Assembly: GCA_963737635.1 (NCBI GenBank)
Contig: CAVTTL010000001.1
Coordinates: 1,632,001 to 1,696,000 of the forward strand
Reading direction: 5' to 3'
Origin: an uncultured Methanoregulaceae archaeon
GTDB taxonomy: Archaea; Halobacteriota; Methanomicrobia; Methanomicrobiales; Methanospirillaceae
DNA: 64,000 nucleotides
Below the pieces are notes generated by a model, which worked only from the letters and a program-made list of their open reading frames with translations, did not search any database and was not told where the DNA came from. Position numbers and translations under genes: made by a program. Positions 27,955 through 37,497 of the stretch are shown here, piece by piece. Every line of letters begins with the position of its first letter. Within the stretch, counting starts at the first letter, position 1.

Positions 27955-28330
27955 GCTTAATCACACACACAAAACAATTACGGGAATCAAATTCCTTAAT
28001 TCAAGAGTTATCTAGAAAGAGTAATTAAACATTGTTATGTCTGCAAACGGTCAAGCAGAACATTTTAACGATACATTAAAATTTTTTAGAGTGCTTAACT
28101 CACGACATATTTTCTCTCTCGATGTTGACCTACGATGTGAATGAATTTTGCATTTTCTGGCATTTTTTGACTTACTCCAGAATATTGTTTTCATTAAATA
28201 ATTATCATTTTTCCTTCTTGCAAACAAACAGACAAAAAAAGGGTCAACGCGCGAAAAAGCCTCTCTATGACAGCAAAGATCTCAATAGCTTCTGCACCCG
28301 GTGATCTGATGCAAAAAAGAGGAGAGAAGT

Positions 28331-29269
28331 TCACAGCCTGTACGTTGTTCCAACCGTATTGAGGATGCAGGTCCCCGGCATTGCCGAAATGAACCGGTTG
28401 ATCGCATCCCAGCCGGTACAATGCATAGGCACGATATAGGCCGGATCAATCTGTCTCATCGCCTCGATCGTCGGCGCGATGACCGGCGCAAAGAGTGGCC
28501 CGGTCAGGTGGAATCCGCCAAGAACCGCAAACACGCGATCGACACCGGTGATCTTCTGGGCATACCGGACGGTATTGATGATTCCGGCGTGAGCACAACC
28601 GCTGACAACCACCAGGCCCTTGTCTTTGATATTGATGACCAGCGCCTGATCGTCGAGGATTTTATCCGGGGTCCACTGGTTATCTATCCAGGCCTCCATA
28701 CCGGGGAACCCTTTCTCAAACGGCACGGTCCGTTCGATCTCACCGGTGACGAGTACGTGGCCGGATGCAAGAAGCGATGGCCCGGCATGCTCGCGGATGT
28801 CGGCCTTGTCCTGTTTTAAAGAGACCGCATCGAGCTTGGGGAGATTGACCGGCTCTTTACCCCGGCTGGTAAGTCTGCGGCTCAGGAATGCATCCGGGTG
28901 GACGATGAGCGGGACCTGGTGGCTGGCCACCTGGAGCAGCGATGGGAGTCCCCCGGTATGATCGAAATGACCATGACTCAAGACAACCGCCTCTGCTCGA
29001 CCGGGTTCAATACCCAGCTGCCGGGCGTTGTGGAGCATGCACCCGCACGAGAGACCTGTATCCAAAAGGATGTCATGTTCCTTCCCGTTTGAAAATAGTT
29101 TGAGGTAACAGGAAAAGCCATGTTCGGCCAGAAGGGGACGGTCCAGCGCGAACGGCGGTCGCAGGTCAACGGAGGTTTGTGGGGGAACGAAGATGTCGAT
29201 GTAATTGTCCACCAGTACCGTTATCTCAGCCCGGTCAGCTTCGTGAAGCTGGGGGGAATCGGTTTTCAT
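28331..29269 (-). CDS. MBL-fold metallohydrolase
   Basis: AEHGFS, LSHGHFDHTGG, GCAHAG, GGFHL, PMHCTG. Confidence 0.9.
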   Translation of the reverse strand: MKTDSPQLHEADRAEITVLVDNYIDIFVPPQTSVDLRPPFALDRPLLAEHGFSCYLKLFSNGKEHDILLDTGLSCGCMLHNARQLGIEPGRAEAVVLSHGHFDHTGGLPSLLQVASHQVPLIVHPDAFLSRRLTSRGKEPVNLPKLDAVSLKQDKADIREHAGPSLLASGHVLVTGEIERTVPFEKGFPGMEAWIDNQWTPDKILDDQALVINIKDKGLVVVSGCAHAGIINTVRYAQKITGVDRVFAVLGGFHLTGPLFAPVIAPTIEAMRQIDPAYIVPMHCTGWDAINRFISAMPGTCILNTVGTTYRL

Positions 29270-29315
29270 AGCAGCTAATCTTGTCTGGAACTGATTGAAT
29301 AGGTTTTCATCCGGC

Positions 29316-30536
29316 TTAGAAAAACAGAATCCGCGTTGGGCGACATCTGCCAGATTCATCCGGTGGATCAAACAGGAGTGTACTAAATGCCAGAAGATCA
29401 ATCTCCTTTATTGCGGCAAGCGTTCCGTGTTTCGATATCCCCCGCCGATGGAAGGGATCGGTCAGGGCATAAAAATGCAGGTTATCATTACCGGAAAGGT
29501 GAGAGATCAATTTGGGTAGTGTACCTGTTTCTGAATCTTGGGGAACCCTGTGTTCCCCGGTAAGGGCAAAGATCCCATCTTCAAGGAAAACGACCGTGGT
29601 CTGGATGCCCTGGTGGGCACAAGCGACAGCAAAAGCGACCCCGCCATAGGCATACTCAGTAGTGTAAGGGGTGTGAGTTATCAGGATGACAACCGAAGGG
29701 GTTTGAGGGGAAATCTGTTCCTTTTGTTCTGAAGGAGGACAGTGTATATAACCCGCATTCTCCGAAAGCAGAACCGGGGTATCTTTGCTATGGCGGATTA
29801 TAACGTCCAGGTCTTTGATATGCGCAGGTCTGACCACAAATAACGAACCGATAGTCCCAAGGCCGTCGTCCCATGATTCATATCCCCGTTTGCTGGCACA
29901 GTACCTGTTGACCATAACGGTACAGGGGAGGTTTTTCCCTGCCGCAGATTTCCCGAGCGTCTCGATGGCTGTTCCTCTATTTTCGGTCTCTCCGGGATTC
30001 TGGCCGATATGACTGATATGGCTGCCATCCAGATATGCGTACAAACTAACCCCGCAATCGAGATCCAGTGCGGCTGAAAGGAACCGGACCGCGTATCCCG
30101 CCGAAGGGAACATGTAGGGCGATGAGATCTGGAGCCAACCGATCCGCGGAGGAACCGGCCCGGGACCTTCGCGGATTTGGGAGATAACGGCTGCCCAGAA
30201 TGACGGGCTTTGACTGGATTCGCTTACCTGATCCGGAAAACTCTCCCGCAGGGGATCAAGGGAAATACCCCGGATATCCAATGCATCACGGTCGCAGATG
30301 AGCCTTACCTGAGGCAACGACAGCATTGACGACCATATATGCCGGGATTCGGCTTCGTTGAGGCTGTACAGGGCGTCCCCGGTAAGGAAAACCACAAAAT
30401 CCATAGATGTGGCGGATCCCTGATTACCGGAACCTTCGGCATGTGGTTTTTGGTAATGAAATTTGAGTACCTCTTCAATCCACGACAACCGTTCCTGCGT
30501 TACGACAGTACTTAAGAAAAGAACGTTCGCGGTCAT
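29316..30536 (-). CDS. multidomain DsrE/F/H-like protein, paralog of 7953-9194
   Basis: Same motif order: FLTGDALYSL, SPY, YLDG, CASKRG, TPY, FLEDG, RILFF end. Confidence 0.7.
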   Translation of the reverse strand: MTANVLFLSTVVTQERLSWIEEVLKFHYQKPHAEGSGNQGSATSMDFVVFLTGDALYSLNEAESRHIWSSMLSLPQVRLICDRDALDIRGISLDPLRESFPDQVSESSQSPSFWAAVISQIREGPGPVPPRIGWLQISSPYMFPSAGYAVRFLSAALDLDCGVSLYAYLDGSHISHIGQNPGETENRGTAIETLGKSAAGKNLPCTVMVNRYCASKRGYESWDDGLGTIGSLFVVRPAHIKDLDVIIRHSKDTPVLLSENAGYIHCPPSEQKEQISPQTPSVVILITHTPYTTEYAYGGVAFAVACAHQGIQTTVVFLEDGIFALTGEHRVPQDSETGTLPKLISHLSGNDNLHFYALTDPFHRRGISKHGTLAAIKEIDLLAFSTLLFDPPDESGRCRPTRILFF

Positions 30537-30838
30537 CTGCGGTCTGTCCTAGGTAATGTATGTAGATCAGGGATATTATCAATGTGACTTACGAATCCGG
30601 GCCGGTATTTACGGAAAAACGCCAAAAAAGAACTGAAGGTTTTGATAAGTTAACGATTGGTTGACATTGTTGCCGGTTGGTAAATTTACCCCTAACAAAT
30701 ATTTTTATTTTAAAAGCGTTCTTTATAGCATCAAAAAGAACGCACTAAAAGAGGATTGAGATTATGTGGCACTTGTCACATCAACGATCAATCTTATTGT
30801 AAGTCTTATATCTTTGATTATACATTTACCAAATTCAA

Positions 30839-31795
30839 TCAATTTGACTCTAACGAACAGCTCCCTGTTGCGGGTTCTTTGGATTTTATTGTAAAGTATA
30901 TACGATATTTATATCCAATTTTTGGCCGATAAATAACCCACTCCATCAGATTATCCTTCCAAATGGGCATAACCTTCTGGTTCTTATACATCATCTCGCT
31001 ACTCCACATTCTTTCATCGGAAAAATCTCTTACTTCAATATCAAGAATGTCACCCGTTGCATCTGGTCTAATTGGTGAGGTGATTATGTGCGTTTTTTTC
31101 AGTTCTCCTTCGAGTTTTGCACGGATTCTGAGCTTTTCTGTGACGGCATTTATCGTGACTTGCACCCAATCAATATCTCCTCTTAATGCAAATTCGAAAG
31201 CTTTTGCATGATATTTAATTCGGATGTCACGTGTTTCTTGCGGTGGCGCATGAACTGGAAATTTAACTTCGAATTGGTTATCTAACTTATCCTGATAATC
31301 TGGGGAAGTTCCGGCGTGATATTTAACATCCTCTATAGTGTAATTCATTTTTTTCCCATCTTTACAAAATTCTATACTTTCAAAAGTTGGGTTAGGTGTG
31401 ATTGGATCAAATGAATTGTTAAATTGATAGAGATTGTAGTTATGTTGCATATTATTCCGGATTACCCGAACTTCTTCCATAAGAGTTCCATTTTCTTGGG
31501 AATGCTCATCAAAATACAAATTTTTTTCAAAATTTAAGATTGTAATATCATGTGCTACACAATCATCAATTCTTAATTCGTCGAGCTCCTTAACAAATGT
31601 TCTAACATAGAGCAAGAACGTTAAAATCATAAAACCCAAAAGAAATGCAACAATATAGAGAATTTTTGTAGATAGATCAAGAGAATAAACACAACTTGTA
31701 AGTAATGATATTAGGGCAACTATAATGAGAACTAGTATGAAGATAAGATTCGTTTTGATGGTGGAATATAACCATTTCAATCTATGGGGGTACAA
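30839..31795 (-). CDS. AT-rich hypothetical protein, 2 TM helices plus beta-rich soluble domain
   Basis: 318-aa ORF; true start may be ATG 31840 with an indel. Confidence 0.7.
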   Translation of the reverse strand: MYPHRLKWLYSTIKTNLIFILVLIIVALISLLTSCVYSLDLSTKILYIVAFLLGFMILTFLLYVRTFVKELDELRIDDCVAHDITILNFEKNLYFDEHSQENGTLMEEVRVIRNNMQHNYNLYQFNNSFDPITPNPTFESIEFCKDGKKMNYTIEDVKYHAGTSPDYQDKLDNQFEVKFPVHAPPQETRDIRIKYHAKAFEFALRGDIDWVQVTINAVTEKLRIRAKLEGELKKTHIITSPIRPDATGDILDIEVRDFSDERMWSSEMMYKNQKVMPIWKDNLMEWVIYRPKIGYKYRIYFTIKSKEPATGSCSLESN

Positions 31796-32084
31796 AAAAG
31801 CACCTTACTTTGGAATCTAATTTTTACCCTTCTCTGGCATTGTAACATATCTCCACATACAGTATAGATATCTGCTAGAGATATAAAAAGTTGGTTAACG
31901 GGCGTATTTTTTACTTCTCCGCTCTTACCGTGCCCAAAATAGGGTCACAATGCCTTTTTACTCCGCGCTTTCTCATAATTTTACTTATGATACAACATAT
32001 GATCTCATTCGTAAAATGTGTAGGGATAGTAAATAAAACAGTAATTACAGTAACATTTATATCAGTAAAAGTCGTACAAAATGA

Positions 32085-32852
32085 GTGGTAGAAAGGAGTG
32101 CTAAAATGAAAGTTGGTACGTATGAAATACCTGATTACAGATTAATCCCGACAATGATTGAATCAACAAAAATAATTTATGACAAGTTTAAGGGAGAAAA
32201 CGCTCCTGATAACTTAACTGTGGCAAACTTACTAGGTCACAAATCAGTGAGTGGCTCTCTTCTCACAAAACTTGGCAACCTTAGAAGTTATGGGTTAATT
32301 GAGAAACGTGGAATTAAAGTCACGGAACTAGGAAAAAACATTACATATCCTATAAATGAAGAGGCAAGAGATGAGGCTATAAGACAAGCTATTTTGAATA
32401 TCCCGTTATGGGCGGAATTATATAGAAAGTTTGGAGTAAACTTACCGAGAGAAAACTTTTGGGTGGATTTAAAACAAATTACGGGTTTAGAAGCCCCAGA
32501 ATCGCAAAAACTCGCCGATATGGTTCGGAATTATTATATAGACGACACAAAATATCTTAATATTGTCGAGAAATCCGTCCCGCCCGCAGATTCAAAATCA
32601 CAACAAGCGCGCGCAGAGGATACGAACGATAGAAAAGATGTTATGGACACATTGCAAGTCAATCTAAAATCTGGGACGATCCCCTTCACACAGTTCCAGT
32701 TTGGAGAATCTAAAGTTGTAATTGCAGACAGAGCGCACTTGGACATTATCAGTGGTTTCCTTTCAAATTTGAAGGACACCTTAGACAAACAAAACATCCC
32801 ATTGGGAAAACCAGAGTGCAAACCAGAAGGAACGAAAGAAAACAAAATCTAA
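32085..32852 (+). CDS. AT-rich hypothetical protein with winged-helix-like N-terminus
   Basis: VANLLGH...KLGNLRSYGLIE..GIKVTELG pattern; TTTATA box at 32056-32061. Confidence 0.7.
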   Translation: MVERSAKMKVGTYEIPDYRLIPTMIESTKIIYDKFKGENAPDNLTVANLLGHKSVSGSLLTKLGNLRSYGLIEKRGIKVTELGKNITYPINEEARDEAIRQAILNIPLWAELYRKFGVNLPRENFWVDLKQITGLEAPESQKLADMVRNYYIDDTKYLNIVEKSVPPADSKSQQARAEDTNDRKDVMDTLQVNLKSGTIPFTQFQFGESKVVIADRAHLDIISGFLSNLKDTLDKQNIPLGKPECKPEGTKENKI

Positions 32853-32868
32853 TTTATTAAAAACAAGT

Positions 32869-32956
32869 GCCGGGATCGCCAAGTTTGGCATGGCGGCTGA
32901 CTTATAATCAGCTAATCCCCCCAAGGATTTCGTGGGTTCGAATCCCACCCCCGGCG
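32869..32956 (+). tRNA. class II tRNA with Ser-type body and UAU (Ile) anticodon
   Basis: Acceptor GCCGGGA/CCCCGGC plus G73, D-stem GCC/GGC, anticodon stem GCTGA/TCAGC with loop CTTATAA, variable stem AATCC/GGATT, T-arm GTGGG-TTCGAAT-CCCAC. Confidence 0.9.
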
Positions 32957-33759
32957 TTAATAGATTATAGTTCTCAGCTAAGAAAAATCTTTCTGTGTTA
33001 TCCTGTTTCTTTTGGTCGTGTTACTTTCTCCATATCCCGCGGAATATCCTACCGGTAAAAAGTCTGTTGAAGTAACAAATTCTGATAAGGTAGAACTCGA
33101 CAATGCGTTTGAATTGAAATAATAATTTGTTTCGATCCAAATATTATTTTCGTTCTTTTAGTAGTCATTAGTAGTTGCGTGATACTGCTCTGAAATTCGT
33201 GTAAAATCGTTCAATTCCTTCAAATAGTGTTTTAAAGCTGTTCGTTTATCTGAGCGTCCGCCGGCTCTTTTTTGTATTTCCCGCCGGGGATTGTGGGAAG
33301 AACATGTGTACCCCTGTCAGACGACACAATGACTGCCGATATTCTCGGCCTGTTTTTCGGGCAGTATAACACCGCCCCGGGACCCTCAATCCGCAGCAAA
33401 TCCTTGAGCTCTGCAACCGCCATGTCCCTCCGAAACATCCCACGGTGACGGCGATAGTCAGGCTTCACCTGTACAGGCATCAGACTTCGCCGACCTCTGC
33501 CCTCGATCAACGAGAAAAGGTCGGGTACTATGTTGTAGCGTAAAATGGCATCGTGTCCTTTGAGGTGCGCATGGATGTGGTCCCCCGTCCTTTTATATAA
33601 GGAGATACACGTTTTTTGATCTGTGACGCGAGGATCGGAACCCCGCACGCGTTCTTCTTTCAACGAGCGAGCCCGATGTCCCACTGTATCCAACATATTT
33701 TATTTTCCGCATCGTTGAACCATCCATAGCCTCTATATTATCGAATTTCACAATGTAAT

Positions 33760-34164
33760 TTGATAAGCATGGTATGGATCCAGATATATGATGAGATTGG
33801 GGTAATAAACGATGAAATGATAGAGAAGATCTGTCCTGATACCCCTAAACAATATAAGGAATGGTTTAAGTTTTACGCGTATATTAATGGAGAACCGTAT
33901 TTAATTCATTCTGAGGATTTGCCTCGCAGAATTAATGAAACTATTCAAATAACGGCAGAAATTGTTCCGAATTGTAAAACGGATTTTAATGAAAAACAAG
34001 AAGCATATGAAGAAGCCTTCAAAAACGCTTACTCAGAAATTTATGACGAGGAAAGGAAGATCTTCTCGAAAATAATGTCTGTACTTTTCGAGGCAAAGAA
34101 AACAGACAACAACCAGATCATTAATTTCAGAGATGAGCTTCTCCAAGCGAAAAGTCACGAATGA
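33760..34164 (+). CDS. AT-rich hypothetical protein
   Basis: 134-aa ORF in AT-rich DNA. Confidence 0.55.
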   Translation: MISMVWIQIYDEIGVINDEMIEKICPDTPKQYKEWFKFYAYINGEPYLIHSEDLPRRINETIQITAEIVPNCKTDFNEKQEAYEEAFKNAYSEIYDEERKIFSKIMSVLFEAKKTDNNQIINFRDELLQAKSHE

Positions 34165-34340
34165 TTGACATTTTTTTGACCGGTCAATCCGGCACCATGC
34201 CCCGGCACTCCGGGGAGTACCGCCACAGGATCATGCTCCATGCCTGCTCCTCTTTCTTTGTTTAACACGATGCTTTACACCACACTATCTCTCCCGCCCG
34301 GGGAGAAGTTATCACCGATCAACGCCAACAGGATAATCCC

Positions 34341-34893
34341 ATGATTCTGGTGGACTGGCAGCTCCGGGATCGCATCTCCCGCGGCCATATCAGGATCGAT
34401 CCTTACGATCCACATCTGGTACAGCCCAATTCGATCGATATCCGGCTTGGTAACCACTTTGTCTGGTACACTCCGGGTAACCAGGTCATCGATCCGTACG
34501 ACAAAGCAAGCGTGACTGCCGATGTTGGCGAGACACACGCAGATTCTTTCGTTCTCATGCCGGGTCAATTCGTCCTTGCCGAGACTCTCGAATGCATCGG
34601 CCTACCCGACAACATCGTCGCTACCATCGAAGGAAAATCAAGCATCGCCCGGCTCGGCGTCACGCTCCACCAGACCGGCGGCTGGATAGATGCCGGCTTC
34701 CGGGGCACTATTACCCTCGAGATGGCAAACGTGAACGCACGGCCGGTCAAGGTCTACGCGGGCATGCCGGTTGGCCAGGCTCGTTTTCTACACGACTGAG
34801 CGGGCAGAGAATCCGTACGACAAAAAGACCGATGCCAAGTATCTCGATCAGCAACAGGCTACGCTCTCCCGGTACCATGAGAATAAGAAATAA
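34341..34893 (+). CDS. dcd: dCTP deaminase, frameshift near 34775
   Basis: [34 protein letters not shown]-terminal AKY..Q in another frame. Confidence 0.92.
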
Positions 34894-35006
34894 GGGCATA
34901 TTGTACCCATATCCCCCAAACCACTGGATAACCGGTGGGCAATGAGGGTATATACCTTAAGAACCCATTTTATACGAATAAATCGTTCCGGAGTGGAGAT
35001 GAAGCA

Positions 35007-36852
35007 ATGCGACTTCTTCTGATACATTCAGATTACATCGAATACGAAGCAAAAAAGAAGACGAAGATGGCAGAGGAGGGAGCCGTTCTCGCAGACCGCG
35101 AGGAAGACGCGCTTACCGTCTTTGCCGCAGTTGAGTCCGTCGATGAAGAAGACCTTGAGGGCGTCATCCTCCAGGCTGTTGAGGAAGTAAAAAAGACCGC
35201 TGCACAGGTGAAAACGGACAAGATCGTCATTTACCCGTACGCTCATTTGTCAAACGATCTTGCCCGGCCAGAAGTGGCAGTACCCGTTTTGAATGCCCTT
35301 AAAGAAGGACTTGCCGCAGAAGGATTCGCCGTGAAACGTGCACCGTTTGGCTGGTACAAATCCTTCAAGATCTCCTGTAAAGGCCACCCGCTTTCCGAGC
35401 TTTCAAAGACGATTCTTCCCGGTGAAGAAGGAGAGGCAGTTTCAAAGAAGCTCGGCAAGAAAGAGGTCACCCATGACTGGTTTGTCATAACCCCGGACGG
35501 CACAACCCACGATTATCACCAGTATCTCGATACTACGCCGTTTGGCTGTCTGGTAAAAAAGGAACTGGGTGTCGCTGAACCGACCGGCGGCGAGCCGGCC
35601 CATGTGGATCTGATGCGGGCTAAAGAGGCTCGTCGATTACGAGCCGGCCAGCGACGTCGGATGCCTGCGCTGGATGCCCAAAGGCAAACTCATCCGCGAT
35701 CTTCTGGCCGATTATGTTCTTGCCATTGTCCTCCCCTACGGCGCGACCCCGGTCGAGACGCCGGTCATGTACGACCTTGGCGACAAAGCTATCTACGAAC
35801 ACGCGGACAAGTTTGGCGAACGGCAGTACCGGTTCAAAAGCAACAACCGGAATATGATGCTCCGGTTTGCTGCATGCTTTGGCATGTTCTCGATTATGCG
35901 GGACATGCATATCTCGAAAAATACCCTTCCTTTAAAGATGTACGAACTCTCCACGTACTCTTTCCGGCACGAACAGAAAGGTGAAGTGATCGGCTTAAAA
36001 CGCCTGCGTGCGTTTACCATGCCCGATATGCACTCGCTCTGTACCGATATGCCAGAGGCAATGAAGTGCTTCGAAGAGCAGCTTGCCATTGGCTGGCAGA
36101 CCGGCCGGGACTTCGAGACCCAGCTCGTCGCTGCATTCCGGTGCACAAAAAAGTTCTATGACGAGAACGAAGCATGGGTTAAGAAGATCGTAAAAGACTC
36201 CGGCTGCCCGATGCTTATCGAGATCCTTTCCGAGCGCGTCCATTACTGGGAAGCAAAGATCGACCTCGCAGTTATCGACGGCCAGAACCGCCCGATCGAG
36301 AACCCGACCGTTCAGATCGATGTCGAGAGCTCGACACGGTTCAATATCAAATACTTCAAGGACGATGGTACCCCGGTATACCCGCCTATCCTCCACTGCT
36401 CCCCGACCGGCAGCGTAGAGCGTGTGATCTGTGCGATTCTCGAAAACATCTCGACCCAGAAGGTCCCGGCACTGCCGACATGGCTCTCTCCGGTCCAGGC
36501 CCGTATCGTACCGGTTGCCGAGCGCCACACCCTATATGCGCAGGATATTTGCACGAGCCTCAATTCACAGAACATCCGGTGCGATGTTGATGACCGGGAT
36601 GAGAGCGTGGGCAAGAAAATCCGGGAAGCCGGTATGGACTGGGTACCCTACGTGATCGTTATCGGTGATGAGGAAATGGGCAGTAAGAATCTCACCGTTA
36701 CCATTCGCAGGAAATCCGAGCCGAATAAGCCTTACAAGGAGCAGATGACGGAAGAGACCCTCGCGGCCGCTATAAAGAAAGAGATCGCAGGCAAACCCTT
36801 CCGACCGCTCTATACACCGCGCAAACTCTCCCTGAAAGCACGGTATATCTGA
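35007..36852 (+). CDS. thrS: threonyl-tRNA synthetase (archaeal), frameshift near 35627
   Basis: [34 protein letters not shown] editing domain; [26 protein letters not shown]. Confidence 0.95.
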
Positions 36853-36915
36853 TTTTCTTTCTTTTTTCCATCAGGATAATCTATTGATTCGAGTTCGATT
36901 TCGAAAGGACTATAA

Positions 36916-37497
36916 TTACCGGACCCGGGGCATGGTCACGATTTCCCGTACCTGGAGATCGAAGAAGCTTGCCGTGTGGGCCGGGCGGATCACACAGACC
37001 GAGTCCGCACCACTTCTCGTTCCGCCGATAGCGACGACTTCATTCTCGATACCGATCACGCCTTGGTCGGCAGCAATCAGCACGCACTCGACAGCAACCT
37101 TGAGGCCGCTTCCGACAATCTGGCGCAGAGCTTCCGCGATCGCTTCGGTCCGGGATCCGCCGCCAACCATGGGGGAGCGCGAGAGCGCTCGTTCAAGGCC
37201 GGAGAGGGCGAGGGTACCGGTCACGATTCTCACGCCCTGTTTCCGGAGCTCTTGTGCGGTTGCCTCCGAGAACTCCCACTCACCGGACTGTGAAAAGTGG
37301 GTGACGACCACGAGGGAGAGACCGGTGCCTTTCATCGCGCCAAAAAAAACCTGCGCTGTCTTCCCGGAGCTACTTGCGACTACGATGGTCGAAATCCCGA
37401 GTTCCTGTGCACGCCCGATGGCAAACCGAGCTGCGTCTGCGGTGTTTTCCGGGCCAGGTTTCTCAAAATAGTAGCAGGGTTTTGCAATAAATCCCAT
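36916..37497 (-). CDS. pyruvate-kinase C-terminal-like domain protein
   Basis: YFEKPGPENT, VVASSSGKTA, GLKVAVECVLIAADQG. Confidence 0.85.
   Translation of the reverse strand: MGFIAKPCYYFEKPGPENTADAARFAIGRAQELGISTIVVASSSGKTAQVFFGAMKGTGLSLVVVTHFSQSGEWEFSEATAQELRKQGVRIVTGTLALSGLERALSRSPMVGGGSRTEAIAEALRQIVGSGLKVAVECVLIAADQGVIGIENEVVAIGGTRSGADSVCVIRPAHTASFFDLQVREIVTMPRVR

Follow-up and report, generated by a model that had tools for sequence, protein, structure and literature searches.

A tRNA gene with a serine-type body and a UAU anticodon in a probable mobile cassette of a methanogenic archaeon

The DNA analysed here (the window) is a stretch of 64,000 nucleotides from an uncultured Methanoregulaceae archaeon (GenBank assembly GCA_963737635.1, contig CAVTTL010000001.1, positions 1,632,001 to 1,696,000 of the forward strand), and all positions below are counted within it unless another locus is named. 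Its sole tRNA gene, which ARAGORN places at 32868-32957 on the forward strand with anticodon tat, follows the stop codon of a protein gene on the same strand, here called p255, after a gap of 16 nt, and both genes lie in a low-GC islet (Table 1). The tRNA combines the body of a serine tRNA with the anticodon UAU, which pairs with AUA and thus is able to read an isoleucine codon. The host genome (2.46 Mb, 51.6% GC; G000 in our genome comparisons) encodes mcrA, and we therefore regard the host as a methanogen.

Table 1. Features of the islet and of the tRNA gene within it (window positions; ORF, open reading frame)
Feature	Position	Strand	Basis
Low-GC islet, ~3.7 kb, 30-42% GC against 51.6% in the genome	about 30550..34300		composition profiles, synteny, bridging contigs
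p318, predicted N-terminal hydrophobic segments, no family match	30839..31795	-	ORF list, library scans
TTTATAT, possible archaeal TATA box ~45 nt upstream of the p255 ATG	32056..32062	+	by eye, inference only
p255 gene, 248 aa from ATG (mechanical ORF from GTG 32085, 255 aa)	32106..32852	+	ORF list, homologues
tRNA gene, serine-type body, anticodon UAU, type II, 88 nt	32869..32956	+	ARAGORN, Rfam RF00005, RNAfold, covariance model R1
Anticodon TAT (UAU), within 7-nt loop CUUAUAA at 32901-32907	32903..32905	+	ARAGORN, Rfam; identical in X3 and X5 contigs
Variable arm, 5-bp stem AAUCC/GGAUU and 6-nt loop, U before, UC after	32914..32929	+	sequence, RNAfold
p154, 52-54% GC, no family match	33232..33696	-	ORF list, library scans, composition
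p134, 34-36% GC, 6 AUA codons in 134, no family match	33760..34164	+	ORF list, library scans, codon counts

Rfam model RF00005 identifies the gene as a tRNA over its whole length (32869-32956, forward strand, model positions 1-71 of 71), with a score of 50.9 bits (gathering score 29; E = 5.5e-08) and a single non-standard pair, 7:66. Our own covariance model R1 scores it at 92.3 bits, and its minimum-energy fold in RNAfold is a five-arm cloverleaf (−38.2 kcal/mol, z = −3.62) that none of 200 shuffled sequences equalled in stability. The acceptor halves GCCGGGA/CCCCGGC form six pairs, among them G1:C72, and an A7-C66 mismatch, and are followed by the discriminator G73. U8, a D arm with the GG pair and a stem of 3-4 bp, G26, an anticodon stem GCUGA/UCAGC that includes G30:C40, and a T arm GUGGG-UUCGAAU-CCCAC with a 5-bp stem are all present, and the acceptor branch is therefore of the 7/5 type. 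The anticodon loop keeps U33, a length of seven nucleotides and A37/A38. The variable region of 19 nt reads U + AAUCC + CCCCAA + GGAUU + UC, and CCA is not encoded. The first-pass annotation of this DNA, made from the letters alone, had described the cloverleaf with its 7/5 branch, G1:C72, G30:C40, G73, the long variable arm, the A7-C66 mismatch and the loop CUUAUAA, and each of these was recovered at the same place. That the variable arm might be an archaeal intron was considered and rejected on inspection, since the arm forms a simple hairpin of 5 bp, lacks a bulge-helix-bulge and has serine-type counterparts in the sister tRNAs.

An anticodon that contradicts the body of its tRNA might be a slip of assembly. 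We found the islet sequence in 12 public soil-metagenome runs from 5 studies and compared four of these runs with the islet region. The anticodon is spanned with no other letters and no gaps by contigs of two of them, X5 record 17 (study P3, 32025-32982) and X3 record 10 (study P2, 32226-32951). Because the two contigs agree over the anticodon, TAT is not an assembly slip. The check that the first-pass annotation had proposed thus came out in favour of TAT, at the level of assembled Logan contigs rather than raw reads, in which form rare variants would stay hidden.

The identity of the body was judged by published rules. The main serine element is the size of the variable arm; in Methanosarcina barkeri, both seryl-tRNA synthetases (SerRS), the bacterial-type and the methanogen-type enzyme, depend strongly on G73 and next on G30-C40; in Haloferax volcanii, G73 acts as an antideterminant for LeuRS; and the isoleucine determinants include the anticodon, position 37 and A73 (PMC9976931). 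The window tRNA has the long variable stem-loop, G73 and G30:C40 of an archaeal type II tRNA-Ser. The layout of its variable arm (U44, 5-bp stem, loop, UC) is common to it and all four host tRNA-Ser genes, its acceptor stem is that of the host tRNA-Ser(UGA) save for a G7→A change, and its D arm resembles that of the host tRNA-Ser(GCU). The only departure from this class is UAU in place of NGA or GCU. Other classes fit the body poorly. G73 and the 19-nt variable region differ from the A73, the short variable loop and the body of a tRNA-Ile, and both the host tRNA-Ile(GAU) and the Ile2-like CAU tRNA fall outside its 15 nearest neighbours among the ARAGORN-predicted host tRNAs. A tRNA-Leu would have A73, as do all five of the host, which also have variable stems of 3-4 bp, and a tRNA-Sec would have UCA, a 9/4 branch and a long D stem in place of UAU, 7/5 and a D stem of 3-4 bp. 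In agreement with the serine identity elements claimed by the first-pass annotation, we infer from the rules of PMC9976931 that the body is seryl. It is not a recent duplicate of a host tRNA, since the closest of these in a global match has only 62 identical positions of 90.

The host appears to need no such tRNA. Four tRNA-Ser genes (GCU, CGA, GGA and UGA), all intact, lie elsewhere in the genome together with a tRNA-Ile(GAU) gene and three CAU tRNAs, one of which is probably tRNA-Ile2 because its body is the same as that of tRNA-Ile(GAU). As the host also encodes a TiaS homologue, AUA would be decoded by the ordinary archaeal route and the UAU tRNA would be an extra. The host SerRS is of the bacterial type, with a Seryl_tRNA_N domain.

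Linkage to p255 recurs in related genomes. We define a p255-linked irregular-tRNA cassette as a low-GC islet in which a p255-family gene is followed, on its own strand and within ~140 nt, by a tRNA; the window locus (16-nt gap, 30-42% GC) has this layout, as do loci in six further genomes of the taxonomic family and in one genome (G441) from outside it. A hidden Markov model (HMM) of the p255 family detected homologues in 11 of the 228 genomes of the taxonomic family, and at seven of the 11 loci one or two tRNAs stand 16-137 nt downstream on the same strand. With a background of approximately one tRNA per hundred 400-nt windows (about 50 genes in 2.5 Mb; a rough estimate rather than a formal test), this linkage is far beyond chance. 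Long-arm UAU tRNAs are held by four of the seven loci (G000, G004, G311 and G016). Those of G000, G004 and G311 are of type II, the latter two likewise with G73, and the loop in G311 is CUUAUGA. The G004 genome is from a species of the same genus as the window genome, and its cassette occupies a different chromosomal site, in an islet of 38-47% GC. There the UAU tRNA (57.5 bits with Rfam) lies 56 nt behind a 287-aa p255 homologue, which is 30% identical to p255 over 104 aa (tblastn, E = 6e-9) and scores 261 bits with the family HMM. The G016 tRNA has a 6-bp D stem and a 4-bp T stem and is cut by the contig end before the discriminator; its best model is tRNA-Sec at 38.2 bits, below the gathering score of that model, so that it looks Sec- or allo-tRNA-like, and its host is uncertain because the contig is only 2.4 kb long and the metagenome-assembled genome (MAG) has ~6% contamination.

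The tRNAs of the remaining cassettes are irregular in other ways. The G001 tRNA is of type II with G73 and the anticodon CCA, that of G181 has an aberrant anticodon region, and G343 holds a type I tRNA with G73 and anticodon GCU together with a weaker second hit. Four further genomes in a phylum sample of 401 have a p255 homologue. In one of them, G441, which belongs to a different taxonomic family, a type II G73 tRNA with anticodon UAA follows the homologue by ~60 nt, and its variable-arm stem letters are those of the window tRNA. Among 61 homologue loci (60 from metagenomes and one on a viral contig), four have an irregular tRNA within ~300 nt. At metagenome locus L210 a type II G73 tRNA with anticodon UUA adjoins the p255 homologue, and the irregular tRNA of L211 has the loop CCACUAA, with C33. 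The tRNAs of L183 (4748-4819, reverse strand) and L184 (2647-2718, reverse strand) are Thr-like, with U73 and an 8-nt anticodon loop UUUGGUAA, and are kept in two different contigs between a transposase and a p255 homologue.

Side by side with these stand some single observations. The second tRNA of G004 (contig C8; L224 1183-1254, reverse strand), 12 nt behind the UAU tRNA, is Gly-like, with A73, 55.4 bits and an 8-nt loop CUCCCCAA, an architecture that by analogy would be that of a +1 frameshift suppressor. The G343 tRNA (L232 970-1042, reverse strand; 63.3 bits, no long arm) carries a serine anticodon on a non-serine body and so represents the reverse mismatch. Locus L192 (2354-2479) has a tRNA-Ser(GCU) whose first 12 nt are those of the window tRNA, with an insert of ~40 nt in the D loop, a non-canonical position for an intron. 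At G321 (L230 2518-3663) the p255 islet adjoins the end of an rRNA operon (23S, tRNA-Cys, 5S), where a second 5S copy is weaker than the first (62.4 versus 87.4 bits).

The classical +1 frameshift suppressors of Salmonella are derivatives of tRNA-Gly(CCC) and tRNA-Thr(GGU) with an extra base in the anticodon loop, and for this reason we read the cassette tRNAs with 8-nt loops as frameshift-type. Taken together, the bodies with CCA, UAA, UUA and UAU and the 8-nt loops suggest that the theme of these cassettes is tRNAs that perturb translation.

The UAU tRNAs appear to have been kept by selection. Those of G000, G004 and G311 are 72-73% identical in pairwise comparisons and their p255 partners 30-32%, and still the anticodon, U33, A31:U39 and G30:C40 are the same in all three (loop CUUAUAA in G000 and G004). 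When eight such tRNAs were aligned, 93.2% of the cells in paired positions were standard-paired and 16 of the 22 pairs had changed on both sides. None of 500 shuffles reached either value, and slid controls were 39-51% paired. These figures are support rather than proof, since the model used to align the eight tRNAs was itself made from six of them, so that the alignment is fitted, and the sequences are not independent. Pseudogene decay does not fit this combination of divergence and covariation. The first-pass annotation had called for a search for homologues with a conserved UAU, and this one is kept in four long-arm tRNAs behind p255 homologues, with stems intact and covarying. It had also held that random anticodons among homologues would mark a decaying pseudogene; anticodons do vary among the cassettes (UAU, UAA, UUA, CCA), yet the genes stay structurally intact, and the spread therefore looks like the diversity of the bacterial allo-tRNAs discussed below rather than decay.

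The partner protein belongs to a family of 1835 representatives at E ≤ 0.001 among 1.84 billion. The best 150 members listed are 112-291 aa long, and no longer fused form was found among them, which is weak evidence against such forms. An AlphaFold2 model of p255 from a 77-sequence alignment has a pLDDT of 85.9, with residues 1-150 at 96-98. A Foldseek search of the PDB gave no match at E ≤ 0.001 with either model, and the weak top matches are winged-helix regulators (MtsR, MarR/RovA, DtxR/MntR). Nothing below E = 0.89 was returned by a sequence search of the PDB, the ESM Atlas returned 'hypothetical protein' clusters only, and a Pfam scan of 77 family members gave scattered weak helix-turn-helix matches only. 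We take p255 to be an uncharacterised archaeal family with a predicted winged-helix-like N-terminal domain that may bind DNA, which is a lead and not a finding.

Clustering of the neighbours of 72 p255 loci indicates a mobile context. A transposase with a SWIM zinc finger and a DDE_Tnp_IS240 domain (SWIM-DDE) is present in 19 of them, mostly divergent and ~100 nt upstream of the p255 homologue, and is the transposase beside the tRNAs of L183 and L184. Seven of the 72 hold a gene with a SocA/Panacea antitoxin domain and a small partner ORF, and at L210 a DDE_Tnp_1 transposase lies beside the UUA tRNA.

Synteny of the window with five relatives starts only at ~34300, and the upstream side is different in each. 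The low GC at this synteny break points to a foreign origin. Independent contigs bridge the islet edges on either side (X3 records 7 and 12; X5 records 15 and 20). A DsrE-like gene flanks the islet on one side and dcd and a threonyl-tRNA synthetase gene flank it on the other. Several kinds of element were considered for this islet. An integration-site remnant was rejected because no direct repeat of any part of the tRNA was found in 28000-37000 and the four host tRNA-Ser genes are intact; a provirus is not supported, as no virus genes were found in the islet (no PHROG match better than E = 0.004); and a scan for defence systems gave no PADLOC match. The suggestion in the first-pass annotation that the tRNA is virus-borne thus found no support: a p255 homologue occurs in only one predicted viral contig, and neither an anticodon-arm-specific pattern nor an archaeal-type pattern had any match in the viral contigs of IMG/VR. 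The tRNA has the surroundings of a small mobile cassette or transposon.

Scans for other UAU tRNAs of this kind returned few. In 40 relatives searched by BLAST there was no full-length match to the 88-nt tRNA, only matches of 23-33 nt to the T arm or the anticodon arm. A pattern scan across the order (401 genomes) gave real matches only in the window genome and G004. In one-genome-per-species contigs an archaeal-type long-arm UAU pattern had 17 matches, of which ARAGORN and Rfam confirmed three as type II tRNAs with G73 and UAU, in MAGs labelled Thermoplasmata, Nitrosopumilus and Asbonarchaeaceae. Both scans require exact CTTATAA and GTTCRAATC, and the latter scan GGCG as well; variants like those of G311 and G016 are missed by such patterns, and the counts are therefore lower bounds. 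No p255 homologue was found in the 8-kb loci (6.4 kb for L147) around the Thermoplasmata, Nitrosopumilus and Asgard UAU tRNAs. The Thermoplasmata tRNA is nevertheless followed by a transposase of the same family as that of the p255 loci (32% identity over 372 aa, E = 3e-59). The three MAGs and several of the relatives have the 7/5 branch, and the statement of the first-pass annotation that serine-type UAU tRNAs come only with 8/4 or 9/3 folds was thus too narrow.

Other long-arm or UAU tRNAs turned up alongside. An intron-containing UAU tRNA in a Parvarchaeota MAG (L134 2614-2705) has A73 and an Ile-like acceptor stem and body, and probably represents the genuine tRNA-Ile(UAU) of this DPANN archaeon. 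A looser long-arm UAU pattern matched at least 120 IMG/VR viral contigs (L013-L132), with 93 tat tRNAs called by ARAGORN, mostly of 85-94 nt. Many of these viral tRNAs share the variable-arm loop motif CCAGAUUAG and resemble bacterial or phage allo-tRNAs, and one (L083) is a bacterial Ser-like 7/5 tRNA with UAU.

Bacterial allo-tRNAs are the nearest known relatives in kind. They join serine identity to non-serine anticodons, UAU being one of those that predominate; their branches are 8/4 or 9/3, and they lie near toxin-antitoxin or transposon genes and occur in polycistrons with irregular tRNAs in forest and peat soil (PMC5389517). Two of them inserted serine at leucine codons in E. coli, where induction arrested growth (PMC5389517). 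In the accessible part of PMC7609411 the genes are assigned to bacterial groups only (Clostridia, Proteobacteria, Acidobacteria). The window tRNA shares with them the serine identity and the non-serine anticodon, and its cassette group is likewise varied in anticodon (including leucine and ochre anticodons), accompanied by irregular tRNAs and at home in soil and peat. Some related p255 loci lie near transposon or antitoxin-domain genes; the window islet has neither. Allo-tRNAs have a 12-bp branch (8/4 or 9/3) and belong to bacteria and phages; the window tRNA, in contrast, lies in a methanogen chromosome and has the canonical 7/5 form of an archaeal type II tRNA. Because of its 7/5 branch we do not class it as an allo-tRNA. 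The cassette tRNAs also have a conserved protein partner in p255, and none is described for allo-tRNAs in the available portion of PMC5389517. On every other criterion testable here the window tRNA appears, from its sequence, to work like an allo-tRNA.

Two other groups share the anticodon. The nematode-specific nev-tRNA-Ile(UAU) and nev-tRNA-Gly(CCC) are eukaryotic class II tRNAs that are charged with leucine in vitro (PMC3333845, PMC4300185). The former resembles the window tRNA in having a long-arm body with a UAU that matches neither Ser nor Leu, and the pairing of UAU and CCC is echoed by the tandem of a UAU type II tRNA and the Gly-like tRNA with loop CUCCCCAA in G004; unlike the leucine-charged nev-tRNAs, the window tRNA carries a discriminator, G73, that speaks for Ser and against Leu. 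Genuine tRNA-Ile(UAU), as in Nanoarchaeum, Korarchaeum, Mycoplasma mobile and others, has an isoleucine body and replaces tRNA-Ile2(CAU) where TiaS or TilS is absent (PMC8450103, PMC3575796). It too offers UAU for AUA in a prokaryote, but the window tRNA has a serine body and its host has both TiaS and an Ile2-like CAU tRNA. No archaeal UAU tRNA with a serine body and no linkage to p255 was found in the literature searched, subscription papers and supplements (including that of PMC5389517) lying outside its scope.

The meaning of AUA in the cassettes can be read from p255 itself. In a 63-member alignment the AUA codons of the G000 gene fall in conserved hydrophobic columns at positions 15 (59 of 62), 99 (49 of 62) and 152 (39 of 62), and that of the G004 gene at position 80 does so in 62 of 62. 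Across the tRNA-bearing cassettes the AUA codons of p255 genes mostly lie in conserved hydrophobic (I/V/L) columns, with some others in variable ones. Because of these conserved positions, AUA means isoleucine in cassette genes, the code is not reassigned, and a reassignment of AUA to serine within the islet can be ruled out; a UAU tRNA charged with serine would therefore be a missense suppressor and not the agent of a new code. The yeast CUG clade reportedly owes to a tRNA-Ser with a reassigned or ambiguous anticodon a chromosomal change of code that became fixed in the lineage. Unlike there, AUA stays isoleucine in the cassette genes, and the tRNA gene is patchy in distribution and borne by a mobile element. 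A further natural precedent is offered by variants of tRNA-Pro in Streptomyces whose anticodons are mismatched. In engineered anticodon variants of tRNA-Ser, SerRS ignores the anticodon and serine is inserted, often with harm to the cell when the variant is abundant (PMC6125640, PMC6827378).

We consider it somewhat probable that the window tRNA is an intact, horizontally acquired missense suppressor of the seryl type, which reads AUA as serine and is cargo of the small mobile p255 cassette. One promoter ahead of p255 would drive both genes, as the 16-nt spacing leaves the tRNA no room for one of its own. A TATA-like motif, TTTATTAA, is present before the tRNA at 32853-32860, only 9-16 nt from the mature 5' end; because this is too close to serve, co-transcription with p255 is the simplest reading. 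The transcript would be processed and given CCA, and the host SerRS, being of the bacterial type and not reading the anticodon, would charge it with serine on the strength of its identity elements. The charged tRNA would then compete with the agmatidine-modified tRNA-Ile2(CAU) at AUA, ~1% of host codons, so that some isoleucine would be replaced by serine. The element itself would most likely be the beneficiary of the cassette tRNAs, which could act as a harmful or 'addictive' product under regulation or could modulate the translation of the host or a competitor, and p255 is a likely candidate for a DNA-binding regulator of the cassette. In short, the UAU tRNA has the look of a code-bending tRNA that a mobile element keeps on purpose. 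From the interpretation given in the first-pass annotation, this retains the Ser-type body that reads AUA, and drops the viral carrier and the limitation to 8/4 or 9/3 folds. The grouping of p255 with mismatched, nonsense- and frameshift-type tRNAs is best described, on sequence evidence, as a previously undescribed archaeal cassette family. Rather unlikely, in our judgement, is the further step that this cassette is a new selfish or defensive module, in which the decoding-corrupting tRNA would be harmful, p255 would be its repressor or antidote, and SWIM-DDE elements would have spread the pair among archaeal phyla; its effects would then comprise serine at AUA, UGG or UUA, ochre suppression, and +1 frameshifting by the 8-nt loops.

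Several observations weigh against a serine-inserting tRNA of this kind, and some of them favour one or another alternative. Serine charging is inferred from rules set in other archaea, the A7-C66 mismatch lies at the junction of the acceptor and T stems, and none of the listed runs with islet sequence is on record as RNA. p255 evidently does not need a tRNA, since no irregular tRNA stands beside its homologue at G019, G252, G367 and G321 (four of the 11 family loci) and no tRNA lies within ~300 nt at 57 of the 61 metagenome or viral loci. Scans of the window islet with Pfam, PADLOC, PHROGs and NCBIfam revealed neither a transposase nor a toxin-antitoxin gene. When the anticodons of six allo-tRNA(UAU) species were changed to CUA, none of the six was active as an amber suppressor in E. 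coli translation, and the authors suggested for allo-tRNA(UAU) a role outside translation, with a link to transposons or toxin-antitoxin systems (PMC5389517). A corresponding role for the cassette tRNAs, as a tRNA-shaped recognition or priming structure in transposition, a regulatory RNA or a decoy for anticodon nucleases, would agree with the SWIM-DDE transposases that adjoin both related cassettes and the Thermoplasmata UAU tRNA, and with deviations that would hamper decoding in some cassette tRNAs (C33 in L211, the 8-nt anticodon loops). The window islet, though, has no transposase, and its tRNA keeps what decoding requires (U33, a 7-nt loop, A37/A38) along with the D-loop GG, the UUCGAAU T loop, the 7/5 branch and G73. 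Serine identity elements, moreover, are kept across the cassettes beyond what mere shape would ask for. We therefore regard a role outside translation as improbable, and as the weightiest of the three alternatives.

Charging with isoleucine comes next in weight. UAU and A37 are determinants for IleRS in the systems studied (PMC9976931), so that charging with isoleucine or mixed charging is possible, and true tRNA-Ile(UAU) exists in some archaea (PMC8450103), probably including the L134 tRNA described above. The window tRNA would then help the AT-rich genes of the islet to read AUA, which makes up 19.5-44.8 per 1000 codons in the islet ORFs, 2-4.6 times the host value (9.75 per 1000 in 937 long host ORFs). 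Since p255-family AUA codons stand at conserved hydrophobic columns, an active tRNA that inserts serine would damage the cassette's own protein; this usage counts somewhat against a high constitutive activity and in favour of codon supply. Yet G73 and a variable arm of serine geometry are found in the three complete UAU cassette tRNAs and in three other phyla, whereas the L134 tRNA, detected in the same scan, has A73 and an Ile-like body. Codon supply also leaves unexplained why sister cassettes have CCA, UAA and UUA on bodies of this kind and why there are tRNAs with 8-nt loops, and the host already has TiaS and an Ile2-like CAU tRNA. Supplementation of AUA decoding is for these reasons quite unlikely. 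Least weight falls to a neutral relic, a duplicated or imported tRNA-Ser whose anticodon has drifted and which is silent or decaying. It could draw on the A7-C66 mismatch, on the gene's presence in one species only among the 40 relatives searched by BLAST and on the differing anticodons of the cassette tRNAs, but no conserved tRNA position has been lost, compensatory changes occur in 16 of 22 stem pairs, the place close behind p255 is repeated at seven of 11 loci, and UAU has been kept in four cassettes at the divergence given above (72-73% for the tRNA, 30-32% for the protein). We hold such a relic to be very improbable.

Natural tRNAs whose identity contradicts their anticodon are rare, and they bear on the rigidity of the code and on purposeful mistranslation. 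Bacterial allo-tRNA(UAU) genes are abundant yet functionally unexplained, and the window tRNA offers a canonical 7/5 archaeal example. What is new here is the conserved protein partner, the sister tRNAs of mismatched, nonsense and frameshift type, and one transposase family across phyla; this linkage turns an oddity into a defined genetic unit. If the cassette were indeed a selfish or defensive module, it would be a protein-partnered archaeal counterpart of the bacterial allo-tRNA(UAU) loci and would give those a testable function. A serine-type 7/5 scaffold that tolerates many anticodons may also serve the engineering of the genetic code in archaea.

The p255 start is probably the ATG at 32106, because homologues begin at the eighth codon of the mechanical ORF; AGGAG stands ahead of it by eye (32094-32098). 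The four islet ORFs have no family match in Pfam, PADLOC, PHROGs or NCBIfam, and p318, p154 and p134 have no copy in any related locus compared. Within the islet, 33200-33650 is a patch of host-like GC.

Some irregularities of the assembly lie beside the islet. In run X12 part of the islet is without cover, and a single contig joins 30590 to 34937 with sides of 35-45 nt and two other letters; it may stem from a relative free of the islet and is too weak to use. At 34778, within dcd (34341-34799), one base of the window is absent from every covering contig of X3, X5 and X7, and the dcd frame is 152 aa long as against about 185-260 aa in relatives. The probable cause is an assembly indel by which dcd is cut short, a warning that this assembly contains indel errors. 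The threonyl-tRNA synthetase gene (34935-36852) is split into overlapping ORFs in different frames, one for the editing part (34935-35984) and one for the catalytic and anticodon-binding parts (35674-36852), which may reflect a frameshift or another assembly indel.

Elsewhere in the host genome ARAGORN calls a tRNA-SeC, a tRNA-His(atg) and a tRNA-Gln (at 677379), which Rfam does not confirm. A cluster of extra tRNA-Cys-like genes, one of them degenerate (31.4 bits), occupies G000:C1:536175-539137. Another tRNA there, with anticodon GCA and G73, overlaps the mechanical 5' end of an ORF that by eye resembles cysteinyl-tRNA synthetase, and ORFs near the cluster resemble, again by eye only, genes of cysteine synthesis. 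At G000:C1:678483-681498 lies a CRISPR array with a 30-nt repeat and spacers of ~36 nt, which ARAGORN miscalls as an intron-containing tRNA-Phe.

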